DNA from: a virus
Lineage: Duplodnaviria; Heunggongvirae; Uroviricota; Caudoviricetes
DNA length: 37,236 bases
Direction: 5' to 3' (one strand)
IMG/VR virus record: IMGVR_UViG_2778261175_000003
The position numbers and the translations under genes are program-made. The notes under the pieces were generated by a model. That model saw nothing but the letters and a program-made list of their open reading frames with translations, did not search any database and was not told the origin of the DNA. Of the stretch, positions 3,611 to 37,236 are shown piece after piece (the first letter of the stretch is position 1; each line of letters opens with the position of its first letter).

Positions 3611-4242
3611 AAAAGTTTAATTTTGCTGCTCTACTTCCGGGATTTTTGGCTCTCAACAATTCTGTATGGGCAAGCGATTCATCTACAGGAGCGAGTGATT
3701 TACCTGGTATGACTCTTAATGAGCATGATTTAGTGATAGCTCCACTTAACACGGAAGTCCCATTTTATATCGCAGGGCATCGAAGCCATAGTTCTCATAG
3801 GAGCCATAGCTCTCATAGATCCTCATCAGGTGGTGGATACTATGGTGGAAGTACCCCCTATTATCCAAAAACATACAGCTCACCAAGTTCATCTGGTTCT
3901 TCAAGTTCAGGTGCAAGTTCCTCATCGTCCTCTTCCTCGGTGCGTGCACTTCGTTCTAACGATAATAATAGAACCACTAACACGAGTTCTGTTGGAACTT
4001 CAGAGGTTAACCGTACGAGTAATGGGCTTGCTTCTGATGCAGAGAAACGTAAGCGATTGATTATGCGAGTTCAGTTCGCATTGCTGGACAGGGGATTTTA
4101 TAACGGAAATATTGACGGCATAATGGGGCCATCCACAAGGCTGTCTGTGAAAAATTACCGCATTGCGAATGGATTACCGATTCCTGCAACTGAAACACTC
4201 GACACACAATTGTTAAATTCTTTGAATATATTAGCTCGCTAA
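3607..4242 (+). CDS. hxsA: His-Xaa-Ser repeat protein HxsA-like: signal peptide, (HxS)x5, Ser-rich linker, C-terminal peptidoglycan-binding-like domain
   Basis: Start taken at MKKFNFAALLPGFLALNNSVWA (ATG 3607) rather than the track start 3529. Contains HRSHSSHRSHSSHRS, a poly-Ser tract and a C-terminal segment (RVQFALLDRGFYNGNIDGIMGPSTRLSVKNYRIANGLP) resembling PG_binding_1 domains. Confidence 0.75.
   Translation: MKKFNFAALLPGFLALNNSVWASDSSTGASDLPGMTLNEHDLVIAPLNTEVPFYIAGHRSHSSHRSHSSHRSSSGGGYYGGSTPYYPKTYSSPSSSGSSSSGASSSSSSSSVRALRSNDNNRTTNTSSVGTSEVNRTSNGLASDAEKRKRLIMRVQFALLDRGFYNGNIDGIMGPSTRLSVKNYRIANGLPIPATETLDTQLLNSLNILAR
3778..3822 (+). repeat. Coding tandem repeat encoding five His-Xaa-Ser units
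   Basis: DNA reads cat-cga-agc-cat-agt-tct-cat-agg-agc-cat-agc-tct-cat-aga-tcc; position derived from codon arithmetic in the hxsA frame. Confidence 0.8.
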
Positions 4243-29257: not shown

Positions 29258-29332
29258 GGCTACCTCCTGCTTCCTGTTTCTGAGGCATGGCGCACCAGAT
29301 AAAAACTGTCCGCCATGCCTTATCACGTTGCC

Positions 29333-29644
29333 TTATTCTGGGAATAACGCCCTGATGTTTGCGGCCATCTGGCTGGTTGTCTGAGCCTCTGGCGCAGCCT
29401 GTGTTTTGGTTTTTTCTGCACTGACCTGTGTCACGGGTAATGGCTCATCGTCAGCCCATGCAGCCAGCCGGTAAGCCTCTGCCGGATTCTTCTTCAGAAG
29501 CGCCAGTCCGGCCAGAAAAGCCACACGCTGGCCGCTTTTGCGGGCTTCTGGTGTAAGGCTGTCCAGCCAGGCACATGCTTCGCTTTCGTTCTTGACTGCC
29601 GCAGGCTTCAGATAGAAACTTATCCGTCTGGTTGATGTCGTCAT
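29333..29644 (-). CDS. parR: ParR/StbB-like partition adaptor
   Basis: Pattern RRISFYLKP....LDSL.PE.R...RVAFLAGLAL parallels R1 ParR (RRTIAFKLNP....LDSIPQGERSRLNRAALTAGLAL); sits directly downstream of the parM-like gene. Confidence 0.7.
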   Translation of the reverse strand: MTTSTRRISFYLKPAAVKNESEACAWLDSLTPEARKSGQRVAFLAGLALLKKNPAEAYRLAAWADDEPLPVTQVSAEKTKTQAAPEAQTTSQMAANIRALFPE

Positions 29645-29647
29645 GAT

Positions 29648-30607
29648 CTATTCCCTGTTCATGGCGTGGAGACCATTAACCAGAGCAAACTGTGGCACCC
29701 CGTCCGCGATAAAAGTCGCATTAACTCCGCAGGCTTCGCGGACAGCGGGTGCCACAATCTCCGCCCCTCCACCGACAACCATCACCCGCCCGTAACCCGA
29801 AAAGCTCGCCAGCGCGCGGAGTACACGTTGTTTCAGTGTTTCTTCCTTTTCACGAATAACCGCCATCAGGCTGTTGTAATGTGCGTCATTGTGGATGTGC
29901 TGGCGCAGCCAGGCTTCATCATGGCGATGTTCGATAATGGTATTGGCGATGTGGTGACTGGTGCGCATACCGTTAGTGGCCATCACCGACAGTACGGCAT
30001 CGGCCATCAGAGAAACGCCTACGTGTGGATCGCAAAACACCTGGCTGATACCTGCCAGTTGTCCCTGAACCTTTGCCACATCCAGCGTGGTTCCGCCTAA
30101 ATCCACAATCAGCAGGGATTCAAACGGACTCATGTCAGCCAGCGCCTTAAAGCCAGCCGGAATGGATTCAGGCATAACCCGCACGTTACGGATAGTGAAT
30201 GCTTCGCCGTTCTGGTACTCCACCGGGCGCATAACGTTCGCTTTTTTGCGGTTGATGTTGGTCATATCCGGCTGGGCGTTTGTATCGAAATACTCGCTCA
30301 GTGGCAGGGTGACAACCACATCCACCTCCTGTGGTGTGATGCCTGATTTGACCAGCGCGTGATGAATGGCAATGACATTCACATCGCTGTACTGGTATTG
30401 CGTGTCGGTCGTCTGGACAAAGCGATCGCTGACCGGATCAAAACCATAGCGCACGCCATCAAGCATGTAGTTCGCGGGCTGCGTGCCACCGAACGGTGCA
30501 GACCATTCCGACTTGAAGCTGTTCGGGCTGATGGCGTTGCGGCGTTCGCCGTTCTCAGTCCAGGCCAGCTTGATGTTGGTGGAGCCGTCGTCGATACAAA
30601 TTTTCAT
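29648..30607 (-). CDS. parM: ParM/StbA-like actin-family segregation ATPase
   Basis: N-terminus MKICIDDGSTNIKLAW and internal motifs (YSDVNVIAIHHAL, MPESIPAG, LIVDLGGTTLD, MVVGGGAE) match plasmid R1 ParM as recalled. Confidence 0.85.
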   Translation of the reverse strand: MKICIDDGSTNIKLAWTENGERRNAISPNSFKSEWSAPFGGTQPANYMLDGVRYGFDPVSDRFVQTTDTQYQYSDVNVIAIHHALVKSGITPQEVDVVVTLPLSEYFDTNAQPDMTNINRKKANVMRPVEYQNGEAFTIRNVRVMPESIPAGFKALADMSPFESLLIVDLGGTTLDVAKVQGQLAGISQVFCDPHVGVSLMADAVLSVMATNGMRTSHHIANTIIEHRHDEAWLRQHIHNDAHYNSLMAVIREKEETLKQRVLRALASFSGYGRVMVVGGGAEIVAPAVREACGVNATFIADGVPQFALVNGLHAMNRE

Positions 30608-30643
30608 GTCGATTTTCCTTATATTGATGAATTAATCGTTTAT

Positions 30644-30747
30644 GGGATTTTTAAATCCTGTTTTTGCCTGTTTTATGCGCGCTTTATATTTCGCGGCGCG
30701 TTTTTTGCTCATTTACGGGATTTGTGAATCCCGTTTCTGTCTGTTTT
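30644..30747. repeat. Two 31-bp imperfect direct repeats, each with an internal inverted repeat (GGGATTT-N3-AAATCC..GTTT.TG.CTGTTTT), upstream of parM and overlapping the 3' end of A
   Basis: Copies at about 30644-30674 and 30717-30747, separated by an AT-rich spacer; candidate parC-like centromere/operator or part of the replication origin. Confidence 0.45.
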
Positions 30748-33524
30748 TTGTTTCCACTGGTCAGGCCACCCCGCAGCAGGTCTGCTTTGCGGCGGGCGCG
30801 TTCAGTGGTTTCACTGATTCTCTGTGCGTGCTCCGCGTCACGGATGGCGCGCAGCATGTCAGAAAGCACGGTAACGGGGGTTTTCATGGTGTTCTGGTCC
30901 TGCTGAAGTGTGGATGCCAGGCGTGCGGCGGCTTCGGGGTCTGATGCCCCCAGCTGTTCCAGATAGCTGGCGACCGGGTTATGGCGGATCTCCGTGCTAC
31001 TTACGCCGTGATTACGGCTCAGGCGCTGCCAGAGCTGCGTGATTCGGCTGTCCGGGCGGGTATCCGGTTTGCGTACAATTTCAAATCCCTGCGGTGCAAT
31101 GATGCTGCCGTCAACGTACAGACTGCCGCCCCGTAACAGGTGCTGCATCTGTTGTTCACCGATATGCAGGCCGAGAGATTCAGCAGACTCACGCCATTCT
31201 TTAGCGAGTAATTCGTGGTTATCAGGCAAAGGCCGCTGCTGTTTGCAGCTCTGTGTCCAGCTCTGCATTTCATCACTGCTGTTTTTTGCCTGTTTGTCAC
31301 GAAGCGAACGCATCAGCGCCCGGCGTTCGTGCCGTTTCAGTGAGCGTATCCATTCGTTCACTTCAACGCCGTCAGGGAGCTGCGGCCACGGTGCTGACCG
31401 TTCTTCCGGCTGTTCTGTCCCGTTGTTGTCCGTTTCCTGTACACGGGGACAGTTATTGCCACGAGTCCAAGGGGCGGCAGGGCCGCCCTGAAGGTCAAAA
31501 CCATTTTCGCGGGCGCTGTCTTCCGCTTCCGGTTTGCGTCTTACCAGCTTCCAGCTATCCGGATGCGTGCACACACGGGAGGATTCCCCGATGAGTGGTG
31601 ACCAGATCCCGTAAATCTGTACGCTCTGTTCGCCGTAATCGTTCAGCTCATCTGCGAGGTTGTAGGCGGTGCGAATCAGGTAGTCTTTGCGTGGAACAAG
31701 TACGCCACCCTGTTTCTCAATGTAGGTGGCAAAACACCCGGCATCAGCGGCAGCGAGTACCGCATCCATTGCGTCATTTTCCAGACGTTGTGGACCTTCC
31801 GGGTTGCGGGCCATCTGACTGGCAAGGCGGCGGAGTTCACGCCATACCTGACGGGAGGGGATACCAAAGAACTGGAACTGGCGGACGCGGTGAAGACGCG
31901 CCCAGCCGATGGCGCGTTCCACGCTCTCGGCCATTGATTTTCCGGTTTCGTGGTCCACGCGTGGCTTGCCCGTTTTCGGGTCGATGCCATCCACGGCGCG
32001 GCTGTCCAGGTTCTTTCCGATGTAGGTGGCGATGTAGCTGGTTGGCGTGCCTTTTGAGCCGTCGACGTACTCCGCCTTAAAACGCGGAGTTATGTCATCG
32101 CCCAGCTCGTGGCGGTCTTCCAGAATGGCAATATCGCAGACGTGGGACACGATGGTTTCAATCTCGTCAGGATGAGCAAAAACCATCATGTGCCAGTGCA
32201 CCGTGCCGTCATGATGAGGCTCCACCGTGCGGATGCCATACCAGCGCAGGCCGTCGCGGTTCAGTTTTTTGCGGACCGCCGCAAAAAACGTGTTAACCAG
32301 GTAATCGCTGGAGTCGCGCATAGTGGCCCCGTTCCATTTGGGATTCGGATGACCGTTCTCCGTTGTTGCGTGGTATTTTGACGGGCAGGTGACAGTCAGA
32401 AACACCGCTCTGTCGCCACGGGCTTCGGCCAGAAGTTCCAGCCCCTTCATGGTGGCCATCATTTCTGCCTTACGGTGAACCGGGTTACTTACTCCCGCGT
32501 AATACACTGTCTCGAGATCAATCGTGAACCCGTCTTCATTTTCCAGCATGAAACTTTTCAGGAAATCGCGTGTTTTCTCGCGCTGTGCGCGAAACTCGCT
32601 TAACGCGTCCTGGCTCAGATAGGGTGATGTTTTTCTGGAAACCAGACAGGCGGCGCGGAGTTGTTCTTCTCTCCACTCGCAACGTAACAGCCACAGTTTG
32701 CGTTTCCACCATTCCGCACAGGTCAGGCGAAGGATTGCGCCCGGCAGCAGCTCCGTGTCCGGTTCGTTCCTCCGGTCTTTGTCTGTTGTCAGTGCGTCAT
32801 AATGTGGAGGCGTGGCGTGCAGGTGTAACGCCATGCGGGCCAGCATCTGATACGCCTTCAGCGTTACATCCATGGTCAGTTCGCCATCAGTCGCGCCAAA
32901 GCCATCGCAGAGTTTTTCGAAGGTGCTGCTGAACATCGCCGCCGTCATGGTGGCCAGCGTCTGTATCTGGTGTTTGTTGAGCTGCGGCAGGTAAAGCAAA
33001 TCGTCCAGGCGTTCGCGTCCGGCAAGGGAGCGATAACCCGGTGTCAGCCAGCGGTGATCGGTGCGGTCCAGACGTTCGAATATTTTGCGCAGGGTTCCGC
33101 GCGCGTAGCGTTCAGCCTGCCAGCTCTTTTTGCCTTTCTGGCGATCGGCTTCCTGTTTTTTGCGCAGGAAAGAGAGGTGGCGGCTCAGTGGTTCACGCAG
33201 ATAAACAGGTAGTGCCTTTAGTATGGCAAAGGCACGGGCTACCGGGTCTTGTTCTGTTGCCCGGCGCTTACTGATGATGCTCTGTGCCAGCTTTTCACGC
33301 TGTCCGGCTTCCTCAAGGGATGCCATGAGTTTTTTACCCATGGCAGATTGTGCGAAAAAGGCTTCTTCCTTCGCTTCCTGTTCTTCCTGTGCCCTTTTGT
33401 CCGCCTCAAGGTAGTAACGGATGGCGCGTTGCAGGTCGGTTTCAGTTTCCTGCCTGCGCTCCGTAAATCTGGCCGGATCAATGGCTGGTCGTGGTTCATT
33501 CCAGCTCCATGCAAACTCACTCAT
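30684..33524 (-). CDS. A: Replication initiation endonuclease A (rolling-circle, HUH-type)
   Basis: Very long ORF with HUH motif (TVHWHMMVFAHP) and tyrosine pair (YIATYIGKN). Start at MSEFAWSW (ATGA overlap with the upstream gene). Longer than P2 A as I recall it. Confidence 0.8.
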   Translation of the reverse strand: MSEFAWSWNEPRPAIDPARFTERRQETETDLQRAIRYYLEADKRAQEEQEAKEEAFFAQSAMGKKLMASLEEAGQREKLAQSIISKRRATEQDPVARAFAILKALPVYLREPLSRHLSFLRKKQEADRQKGKKSWQAERYARGTLRKIFERLDRTDHRWLTPGYRSLAGRERLDDLLYLPQLNKHQIQTLATMTAAMFSSTFEKLCDGFGATDGELTMDVTLKAYQMLARMALHLHATPPHYDALTTDKDRRNEPDTELLPGAILRLTCAEWWKRKLWLLRCEWREEQLRAACLVSRKTSPYLSQDALSEFRAQREKTRDFLKSFMLENEDGFTIDLETVYYAGVSNPVHRKAEMMATMKGLELLAEARGDRAVFLTVTCPSKYHATTENGHPNPKWNGATMRDSSDYLVNTFFAAVRKKLNRDGLRWYGIRTVEPHHDGTVHWHMMVFAHPDEIETIVSHVCDIAILEDRHELGDDITPRFKAEYVDGSKGTPTSYIATYIGKNLDSRAVDGIDPKTGKPRVDHETGKSMAESVERAIGWARLHRVRQFQFFGIPSRQVWRELRRLASQMARNPEGPQRLENDAMDAVLAAADAGCFATYIEKQGGVLVPRKDYLIRTAYNLADELNDYGEQSVQIYGIWSPLIGESSRVCTHPDSWKLVRRKPEAEDSARENGFDLQGGPAAPWTRGNNCPRVQETDNNGTEQPEERSAPWPQLPDGVEVNEWIRSLKRHERRALMRSLRDKQAKNSSDEMQSWTQSCKQQRPLPDNHELLAKEWRESAESLGLHIGEQQMQHLLRGGSLYVDGSIIAPQGFEIVRKPDTRPDSRITQLWQRLSRNHGVSSTEIRHNPVASYLEQLGASDPEAAARLASTLQQDQNTMKTPVTVLSDMLRAIRDAEHAQRISETTERARRKADLLRGGLTSGNKKQTETGFTNPVNEQKTRREI

Positions 33525-33910
33525 GGCTGGTATCCCGTCACGCGCTGCCACTCCTGCAAGAAGATGGTGGAAAGGCGGTTAAATTCAGCGGTGTATTCAC
33601 TCAGCGAGACACACCCGCCAGCAGTGCGATGCGCCAGCATTGCCGCAAATACGGAGGCCGGGGAGTCGTAATACGCCAGCAGTGATTCGCCGTGCGGTGT
33701 CAGGCAGTGCAACGCCAGTCCGTGTGGTGTGAAGTCCACGCGGTAGCAGTCGTCTACTGTGAAATAAAGGGTATCCACATTCTCCGGTTTTGTGGTGCGT
33801 GCTCTGTTGTCACGACCACGAATGTAGAGATCAAATAATCCCCGAAGAATGGGAGCCAGACGGGTGTCCTGTGTGCGCACCCATCTTGTGAAGTCATGAG
33901 CGTCAATCAT
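33521..33910 (-). CDS. Hypothetical early-region protein (129 aa)
   Basis: ORF track; translationally coupled to A; no family recognised. Confidence 0.45.
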   Translation of the reverse strand: MIDAHDFTRWVRTQDTRLAPILRGLFDLYIRGRDNRARTTKPENVDTLYFTVDDCYRVDFTPHGLALHCLTPHGESLLAYYDSPASVFAAMLAHRTAGGCVSLSEYTAEFNRLSTIFLQEWQRVTGYQP

Positions 33911-35900: not shown

Positions 35901-36212
35901 ATGTCAAGTGGGTATGAAAAAAAACTGAAAGAGATACGGAAAAGTGAAGGGTTAACTCAAGCTGAGTTTGCTGATGTTACTGGGATAAATCTCGGAACTA
36001 TAAAGAATTATGAGAGCGGTAAAAGAGAGGTTGGTTTAAGCGTTGTTGATCGCGTAATTAATTCTAAGGATTTCGAAAAATACACTATATGGCTTATGAC
36101 GGGAAAAACAAATGAGGCTGCTGGGCAGATCAGTCCCTCTCTCTCCCCTGATGGGCCAGAAAACACATCGTCTTCTCAAAAATCCCGCAAGACTGGTACA
36201 CAGCCCGGCTAA
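35901..36212 (+). CDS. C: Immunity repressor C (HTH-XRE)
   Basis: Matches P2 C along its length (e.g. KYTIWLMTGKTNEAAGQISPSLSPDG vs KYTLWFMTNQIAPESGQIAPALAHFG from memory). Confidence 0.8.
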   Translation: MSSGYEKKLKEIRKSEGLTQAEFADVTGINLGTIKNYESGKREVGLSVVDRVINSKDFEKYTIWLMTGKTNEAAGQISPSLSPDGPENTSSSQKSRKTGTQPG

Positions 36213-36261
36213 TCATGGAACGCTGGGGGCATGGTGGTCTTGTAACGCTGGGGTTTCACGA

Positions 36262-37236
36262 ATGAGCATAAAATCAATTCCGGGAGGGTATCTTCTTGAC
36301 ATGCGCCCTGAGGGGCGTAAAGGCAAACGCATTCGCAAAAAATTTAAAACGAAATCGGATGCAGTTTTATATGAGCGGTGGGTGCTGGCGCAACAGCATA
36401 ACAATGAGTGGAAAGGAAACTCCATTGATCGCCGTCCGCTGTCGGTGCTTATTGACTTGTGGTGGAAATACCACGGCCAGCTAATGAAGTCAGGGCATAA
36501 CACGCGCCTTAAATTGCTGCGCTTGAGTGAGGCAATGGATGACCCGTGTGTGCATAAACTTAATACAACGATGCTCACCGAGCTACGTGTGTCCAGGATA
36601 GAGCAGGGGATACAGCCCAGCACCATTAATCGAGAGATTGGGGCGTTAAGCGCGATGTTTACCGCACTCATCTCATCCGGCCATTTTCTTAACGATAACC
36701 CCGTTCAAGGCCTTAAAGGAATGAAGGTTAACGAGCGCGAAATGGGATATCTGAGTAAGTCTGAATGTGTTCAGTTGCTGGATGCACTGGCTGAAAATCC
36801 CGATGAACGGCTGGCTGTCGAAATCCTTCTGTCGACCGGGGCGCGATGGGGCGAGGTAGCGGCACTGGAGCAGCGCCGTGTTCTTCATTGTCGAATCACT
36901 TTTTCAAAAACGAAGAACAGCAAAAACCGTACCGTTCCTATTTCTGAAAGCCTGTTTGAAAAGATCAAAAAACGGGGCGGGAAACTGGTGTTTCCGACGC
37001 TGGATTATCCATTAGTTCGCGATGTCATCAAAACGGTCGCACCTGATGTTCCTGACGGCCAGGCTGTTCATGCGCTGCGCCACACCTTCGCCAGTCATTT
37101 CATGATGAACGGCGGCAATATTCTGACGCTCCAGAAAATTCTGGGGCACGCAAAGATTCAGACAACGATGATTTATGCCCATCTTGCGCCGGATTACTTG
37201 CAGGATGCGGTGAGATTTAATCCTATTGCTGGGTAA
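36262..37236 (+). CDS. int: Tyrosine integrase
   Basis: Catalytic R...HxxR...Y signature (TGARWGE, HALRHTFAS, TMIYAHL); start at MSIKSIPGG (M51 of the track ORF); downstream of C as in P2. Confidence 0.85.
   Translation: MSIKSIPGGYLLDMRPEGRKGKRIRKKFKTKSDAVLYERWVLAQQHNNEWKGNSIDRRPLSVLIDLWWKYHGQLMKSGHNTRLKLLRLSEAMDDPCVHKLNTTMLTELRVSRIEQGIQPSTINREIGALSAMFTALISSGHFLNDNPVQGLKGMKVNEREMGYLSKSECVQLLDALAENPDERLAVEILLSTGARWGEVAALEQRRVLHCRITFSKTKNSKNRTVPISESLFEKIKKRGGKLVFPTLDYPLVRDVIKTVAPDVPDGQAVHALRHTFASHFMMNGGNILTLQKILGHAKIQTTMIYAHLAPDYLQDAVRFNPIAG

Follow-up and report, generated by a model that had tools for sequence, protein, structure and literature searches.

Which DNA does the segregation cassette of an integrating phage act on? 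In the 37,236-nt stretch of viral DNA analysed here (the window), a pair of direct repeats sits at the junction between replication gene A and parM, where it could serve as the centromere of the cassette, as part of the phage origin or in some other capacity. The element, at ∼30636-30750, is likely to be the cis-acting parC of a type II (ParM/ParR/parC) cassette lying directly after A.

The three genes concerned follow one another on the minus strand in the order A, parM, parR, with a gap of 76 nt between A and parM. Gene A (30684-33551, stop codon at 30684-30686) is the longest open reading frame and matches Phage_GPA (E = 1.6e-128). The 319-residue product of parM (29648-30607, ATG at 30605-30607) is an actin-like segregation ATPase, matched over its full length by PF06406 (StbA_N, 2.8e-82) and PF21523 (ParM C-terminal domain, 4.4e-68), and aligns with the R1 ParM structure 1mwk (E = 7.9e-93). 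The 103-residue product of parR (29333-29644) belongs to the StbB/ParR family, with residues 6-69 matching PF10784 (6.2e-23); it has an N-terminal strand, TRRISFYLKP, and a C-terminal tail ending in NIRALFPE. These matches bear out the gene calls of the original prediction, and both cognate proteins, ParM and ParR, are intact and of R1-type families. ParR gave no match to solved ParR structures among PDB sequences, the R1 ParR is too diverged to be detected by tblastn at 1e-5, and tblastn against plasmids returned P88-like prophage copies only, with no true plasmid relative.

The region 29300-31300 is 94-96% identical to phage P88 and other Xuanwuvirus (Peduoviridae), whose records annotate the three genes as replication endonuclease, ParM and partition protein. 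Genes for an integrase (36112-37236) and for an HTH repressor (35901-36212) are present as well, and therefore the window reads as a P88-like (Xuanwuvirus) integrating, temperate prophage of the P2 family. The transcribed strand showed no terminator-like site in the A-parM interval. The block from the repeats to parR (29333-30760) is present in 1304 of 5426 complete Escherichia coli genomes (24%), including those of UTI89 and O157:H7 strains, at 1442 chromosomal places versus 2 on plasmids.

The repeat search resolves the element into two 42-nt copies that are identical at 34 of 42 positions (81%) and start 73 bp apart, a distance of about seven helical turns. The distal copy (30709-30750, minus strand, CAAAAAACAGACAGAAACGGGATTCACAAATCCCGTAAATGA) lies within the last ∼20-22 codons of A; the proximal copy (30636-30677, minus strand, CATAAAACAGGCAAAAACAGGATTTAAAAATCCCATAAACGA) is intergenic between A and parM. 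From the end of the element to the parM ATG there are 28 nt, and parR follows parM. It had been predicted that two imperfect 31-bp repeats stand immediately upstream of parM, one of them in the last codons of A: the pair and its placing are real, and the length is 42 nt rather than 31. No other pair in the 37-kb window reaches at least 34 matches in 42 at a distance of 20-150 nt, and none of 100 Markov-1 random windows reaches even 30 of 42.

Each copy holds a 16-bp palindrome, GGGATT-N4-AATCCC. On the plus strand, these cores read GGGATTTTTAAATCCT at 30644-30659 and GGGATTTGTGAATCCC at 30717-30732; on the minus strand, the proximal core reads AGGATTTAAAAATCCC and the distal core GGGATTCACAAATCCC. 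The distal palindrome can be extended to 20 bp (30715-30734), and its minus-strand sequence, ACGGGATTCACAAATCCCGT, has perfect 8-bp arms. The proximal palindrome, ACAGGATTTAAAAATCCCAT on the minus strand, is slightly degenerate in the window, most relatives having GGGATTT(CAG/AAA)AATCCC; counted back from the parM ATG, its 5' base is at 55 nt and its end at 37 nt. The core common to both copies is GGGATT-N4-AATCC(C/T), to which the predicted motif, GGGATTT-N3-AAATCC, was a close approximation.

The two arms are separated by a 31-nt spacer (30678-30708, minus strand) that contains the stop codon of A, a GC palindrome centred on TTTATATTT and a TATAAA/TATATG-like motif, and is the most variable portion of the element. 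The spacer had been taken for an AT-rich stretch, but its G+C content is 52%; AT-richness belongs to the 115-bp element as a whole (39% G+C compared with 54% for the window). A-tracts are phased at about 10.6 bp along the full 115 bp, and the AAA periodicity at 10.6 bp ranks top among 7422 windows of the sequence, above the value for R1 parC. The GC palindrome (CGCGC-N13-GCGCG, 30678-30700) is midway between the arms and straddles the stop codon of A; most of the changes seen in it would still allow G·U pairing in the mRNA (T·G in 14 of 91 haplotypes, G·T in 9). Between the proximal arm and parM is a leader region (30608-30635, minus strand) with an (A)TTAAT(T)CA(A) block and a Shine-Dalgarno sequence, AAGGA (30616-30620). 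A non-coding block of this region, ATTAATCAA...ATAAGGA (30621-30636 in the window), is common to P88 and its relatives in Hafnia (∼3975-3990 of locus L013) and Plesiomonas (∼3970-3990 of locus L015) even though alignment of the surrounding DNA has been lost; it may serve as a −10-like element or in translation initiation.

Literature searches on P88, Xuanwuvirus or P2-like parC returned nothing specific and no published description of the site, and the point of comparison is plasmid R1. The R1 parC is a strongly curved stretch of 159 bp, in which two sets of five 11-bp iterons flank a 39-bp spacer with the promoter; each iteron takes up about one ParR dimer, and the spacer stays unoccupied (PMC2241845). 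The repeat search used on the window finds in R1 parC 49-nt repeats that are 73% identical and 94 bp apart. Both elements lie directly upstream of parM-parR, both are bipartite, with two similar arms and a short spacer, and both consist of A-rich DNA phased at roughly 10.5-11 bp. The two ParR proteins fall in the same Pfam family, with a strand RRTIAFKL in R1 and RRISFYL in the phage. The R1 iteron core is an A-tract followed by CCC, and the P88 half-site AAATCCC resembles its forms AAAACCC and CATACCC, in line with the similar RR-x-I-x-F strands.

The differences are equally clear. In place of the two sets of five direct 11-bp iterons of R1, the phage has one inverted pair of half-sites (GGGATT/AATCCC) per arm, so that there are two conserved palindromic cores in all against roughly ten direct iterons. 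The arms are 73 bp apart rather than 94 bp, and the 31-bp spacer has no recognisable consensus promoter, in contrast with the 39-bp promoter spacer of R1. The distal arm is inside the coding end of the upstream gene, unlike in R1, and the host element is an integrating phage instead of a plasmid. By this analogy, the phage element would be a compact version of R1 parC. The pSK41 repeats, for their part, form a continuous tandem array, unlike the two arms of the phage, and the phage ParR shows no detectable sequence similarity to solved ParR structures.

Variation among P88-type phages distinguishes the arms from their surroundings. The distal repeat is conserved across 59 distinct P88-type haplotypes, and in 59-97 haplotypes the palindromes keep their arms, whereas the centre and flanks vary freely. 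The conserved arm sequence is GGGAYT...AATCC, preceded in each arm, about 10 bp upstream, by AAAACAGRC. In the proximal arm, AAAACAGGC and the palindrome arms are invariant and variation is confined to the palindrome centre and the flanks; the 3-4 central bases may be CAG, AAA, GAA or CTG. The distal arms are nearly invariant, except that one arm position changes from T to C in 25 of 91 haplotypes, with no compensating change. Conserved arms around a free centre are the signature to be expected of a site bound by a symmetric protein.

Beyond the P88 type, the sites follow parM. An exact-pattern scan of IMG/VR returned at least 120 matching stretches, of which 118 loci were read. A parM start (strict start-codon pattern) lies at most 230 nt downstream in 94 of these 118, and a further 14 were assigned to parM by eye from their sequences; 4 loci are too near a contig end, and 6 are singletons in unrelated contexts, as chance would give. 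Among the matches listed, consecutive ones are spaced by 73 nt (71 cases) or 72 nt (2 cases). The IMG/VR scans consist mostly of P88-type copies, and a contig scan with ParM yielded three near-identical loci only; the divergent lineages come from a search for encoding contigs, together with a re-ordered alignment. Every genome with the sites also has an A gene somewhere, and therefore co-occurrence alone is no argument against an A-related role.

Natural rearrangements separate the two associations. In a Hafnia locus (L013) with a ParM 62% identical to that of the window, an unrelated 167-aa open reading frame stands between A and parM, yet the sites GGGATTGAGGAAACCC and GGGTTCATTAAATCCC are 73 bp apart and the proximal one starts at −55 from the parM ATG. 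In a Plesiomonas locus (L015; ParM 63% identical), the pair consists of two GGGACAAC…CCC sites, GGGACAACAAAAACCC and GGGACAACACTAACCC, which stand at a distance of 72 bp, the proximal one at −59. Between A and parM of an E. coli variant (L094) lies yet another unrelated open reading frame, of 155 aa. Nucleotide homology between this variant and the window stops inside A and resumes at 30748, the outer edge of the distal repeat, to continue through parR to 29327. Together these variants therefore mark the repeats as the 5' end of a transferable parC-parM-parR block. The two intervening frames (2957-3424 of L094 and 3453-3956 of L013) are unrelated to each other and have no Pfam matches.

The E. 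coli variant also shows how the block joins its neighbour. Its 155-aa frame runs on into the par cassette and takes from it the ∼20 codons with which A ends in the window, and its own A gene ends differently; the cassette therefore supplies the C-terminus and stop codon of whichever frame lies upstream. Genomes that lack parMR complete the picture: the closest A homologues of this kind, from Klebsiella ST11-OXA48phi15.3 and Yersinia MLG42 (A proteins 43% identical to that of the window), and P2 itself have no GGG-N10-CCC site in their 7-kb loci.

The sequence of the sites also changes together with the N-terminal strand of ParR, in a correlation that is phylogenetic rather than independent. 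The strand TRR[IV]SFYL[KN]P of the P88, Hafnia and Plesiomonas proteins goes with paired GGG-N10-CCC sites, and NRKISFYLKP of Serratia and Enterobacter with AAAAACGGGAAC arms (GGGAAC) in one long inverted repeat. Three viral contigs (L167, L171 and L173) with ERKKVMIYLRP have classic 11-bp TTCTCA iterons in two clusters, two others (L186 and L187) with ERKDIRFYLRP have GACGCA/GCCGCA iterons, and R1, with KRRTIAFKLNP, has its two sets of five iterons of A-tract plus CCC. The N-terminal strand itself and an NAxxLFP-like C-terminal tail are kept in all the ParMR lineages compared. In the Serratia/Enterobacter P2-like prophages (L016, L017 and L170), the layout is a different one, about 120 nt upstream of parM: a long inverted repeat, TGGGAACAATATAGAAAAAT / ATTTTTCTGTTTCGTTCCCA, surrounds a small GC hairpin and is followed by a CCGTTTAAACGG palindrome. 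The small hairpin shows compensatory changes between these lineages.

Several of the points on which the original prediction depended have thus held up. The repeats are kept in related phages, across the P88-type haplotypes and in the Hafnia and Plesiomonas pairs, and the parC-like reading gains from the spacing and the distance to parM, which persist without A upstream, from the position of the block boundary and from the shift of the motif with the ParR strand. On this comparative evidence the parC reading is well supported, with ParR binding as its prediction. The repeats are most likely a bipartite parC with phased A-tracts, analogous to R1 parC and a predicted target of ParR; judged by sequence, they would add a member, with some variant features, to the known type II parC class.

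How such a site might work can be sketched from better-known systems; the literature holds no published footprint or experiment for this ParR that we could find. In pSK41 and pB171, a ribbon-helix-helix ParR binds ∼10-bp repeats as dimers of dimers, the DNA is wound around a helix of ParR, and contact with ParM is made, in known systems, by the conserved C-terminal tail of ParR (PMC5016525). By analogy with R1, pB171 and pSK41, the phage ParR would be a ribbon-helix-helix protein whose dimers insert the TRRISFYL strand into successive major grooves, with the GGGATT/AATCCC half-sites, and possibly the flanking A-tract units too, as its targets. Half-sites 10 bp apart would present the same helix face to ParR dimers, and the distal palindrome is proposed to take up a dimer of dimers. 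ParR could then assemble cooperatively on both arms and bend the intrinsically curved DNA, and the separation of the arms by seven helical turns would allow a single bent or wrapped complex that presents the ParR tails. These tails (…NIRALFPE) would capture the ends of ParM filaments, which would push bound DNA molecules apart. There are just two conserved cores, and therefore how many dimers bind and what the flanking A-tract units do is a matter of guesswork.

The ParR complex would probably also limit the expression of parMR, or read-through from A. This operator part of the parC reading is one that we infer, because no consensus sigma-70 promoter was found in the element. A search of 30400-31000 gave no match to the sigma-70 consensus, which leaves room for a weak or non-canonical promoter, and hand inspection of the spacer yielded weak candidates only (ATGAGC-N16-TATATG or TTCAGA-N16-ATTAAT). 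It may be that parMR is simply read through from the early operon.

What the cassette does for the phage is a more speculative matter. One possibility, which we put forward tentatively, is that the element is a working, compact two-palindrome centromere set in the coding end of A and transcribed with the early lytic operon, through which ParMRC separates or positions phage genomes that replicate or are excised on induction, or that pass through a transient episomal carrier state. Were this true, an actin-based DNA-segregation step would belong to the life cycle of a very common E. coli prophage (24% of complete genomes), and ParMRC would have a use other than plasmid inheritance. Independently of function, the ParMRC cassette of roughly a quarter of complete E. 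coli genomes now has a precise annotation of its cis site, and the bipartite, palindrome-centred layout with its cassette-supplied last codons is useful for fixing cassette boundaries in prophage annotation. The question of why an integrating phage keeps an intact plasmid-type segregation machine is thereby sharpened.

A more modest account would make the palindromes an operator of ParR and nothing else, or a decayed centromere, which regulates or attenuates parMR or read-through from A while no active segregation takes place. There are two clear binding cores only, the cassette is nearly always chromosomal, and deletion derivatives exist, such as H91 with its remnants of parM and parR, all of which would fit. 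We consider this account unlikely. About 1300 E. coli genomes conserve ParM and ParR at full length, ParR keeps its ParM-binding tail motif, and the arms are under purifying selection; moreover, one stretch of DNA serves as both operator and centromere in the known type II systems (PMC2241845, PMC5016525).

Less probable again is a role at the level of RNA, with the palindromes acting as hairpins in the early-operon mRNA that provide processing, stability or A-parM translational-coupling signals in place of protein-binding DNA. Minus-strand RNA of the element does fold into three hairpins (z = −3.0 versus shuffles), and changes in the central GC stem are compatible with G·U pairing. The arms behave otherwise: none of the 91 haplotypes has a compensatory double change, the most frequent variant, GGGATT to GGGACT, costs the stem a pair (C·A, 25 of 91), and the opposite strand has other common variants that break pairs. 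In Hafnia and Plesiomonas, the half-sites diverge independently and what is kept is GGG…CCC and the 72-73 bp spacing. No Rfam family matches the element, and terminator-like matches occur on the non-coding plus strand only, the transcribed strand having no T-tract. An RNA hairpin or terminator was rejected on these three grounds: the lack of covariation, the lack of an Rfam match and a T-tract on the wrong strand.

That the repeats belong to the phage origin, or to some other binding site for protein A, was the second suggestion of the original prediction, and appears very improbable. It draws on the copy within A, on the P2 origin inside A and on the AT-rich DNA with phased A-tracts. The P2 origin does lie inside A: in the P2 record, the nick site of A is given at 29892, near codon 620 of the gene. 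The recommended alignment with P2 leads elsewhere, however. The P2 and window A proteins are 31% identical, and the P2 nick position aligns to codons ∼690-700 of the latter, where the DNA reads CCTTGGACTCGTGGCAATAACTGT in the window compared with CCTCGGAGTCCTGTCAATAACTGT in P2. This places a candidate P2-type nick motif, GGACTCGTGGCAATAACTG, at 31450-31468 on the minus strand, inside A and outside 30636-30750. The 19-mer GGACTCGTGGCAATAACTG is identical in Klebsiella and Yersinia peduoviruses, of which A is only 43% identical, and close variants occur in Hafnia and Enterobacter prophages. From its sequence, 31450-31468 is a strong candidate for the place at which the origin of this phage is nicked.

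The nick motif is about 0.75 kb from the repeats and is conserved as a nick site should be, and the origin alternative is therefore rejected. P2, Klebsiella ST11-OXA48phi15.3 and Yersinia MLG42, which are without parMR, have the nick motif but not the GGG-N10-CCC sites, and in Hafnia and L094 another gene comes between A and the sites, which are part of the par block. The origin of P2 likewise lies inside gene A of a P2-family phage, but it differs from the repeats of the window in sequence and in place, and the repeats have no counterpart in P2. The parC site is in this way separated from the phage origin, and a candidate nick motif is placed as well.

It is just as improbable that the repeat exists for the peptide that it encodes. 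Both copies are in frame for KQxxTGFxNP(V/I)N(E/D), at the C-terminus of A (...KQTETGFTNPVNEQKTRREI) and at that of a 26-codon open reading frame (30712-30632, ...KQAKTGFKNPIND), which is intact in 87 of 94 haplotypes. This frame, MSKKRAAKYKARIKQAKTGFKNPIND, lies at 30632-30712 on the minus strand and overlaps the end of A in the +1 frame. Against a coding role, variable sites outside the A overlap are distributed 8/9/10 by codon position (87 haplotypes), with no third-position bias; 7 of the 94 haplotypes truncate the frame, and its ATG has no Shine-Dalgarno sequence before it. Plesiomonas lacks the frame, and Hafnia does not encode the peptide. In phage Chuche the A tail is frameshifted, and it is missing from the A of L094, where the unrelated frame carries it; the tail is therefore dispensable for A. 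The absence of codon bias, the truncations, the absences and the dispensable A tail led us to set aside the duplicated peptide and the 26-codon frame as by-products of the DNA repeat.

It is highly improbable that the repeat is a functionless scar, left by a duplication where phage modules recombined. The distal repeat does coincide with a module boundary, but both copies lie on one and the same side of the cassette, the arms are conserved in about 90 haplotypes in which the surroundings vary, and pairing and spacing persist at 62% ParM identity, beyond the range in which the DNA aligns.

Some minor features of the locus deserve mention. The cassette boundary carries a run of six A residues (30744-30749), which is A7 in phage Chuche and in one IMG/VR haplotype, so that the last ∼20 codons of A are frameshifted; the difference may be either a real slippage polymorphism or a sequencing error. 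A decayed copy in the chromosome of E. coli 2013C-3181 (L322) has a frameshifted A and short remnants of parM and parR, and retains the distal repeat. Among P88-type phages there are two alleles of ParR, as a comparison of two other loci (L005 and L007) with 29333-29644 shows, which are only 54% identical; their first 18 residues are identical and the final LFPE is common to both, and both alleles adjoin the same repeats and a nearly identical parM. The 54%-identical allele is uninformative on covariation between ParR and site, because the N-terminal 18 residues are the same. The pair of alleles may reflect a recombination mosaic or diversifying selection on the core and linker of ParR. Lastly, a 34.5-kb circular ‘plasmid’ (NZ_CP148288) is a whole P88-like genome, which may be an excised or episomal form or else have been assembled from induced phage DNA.
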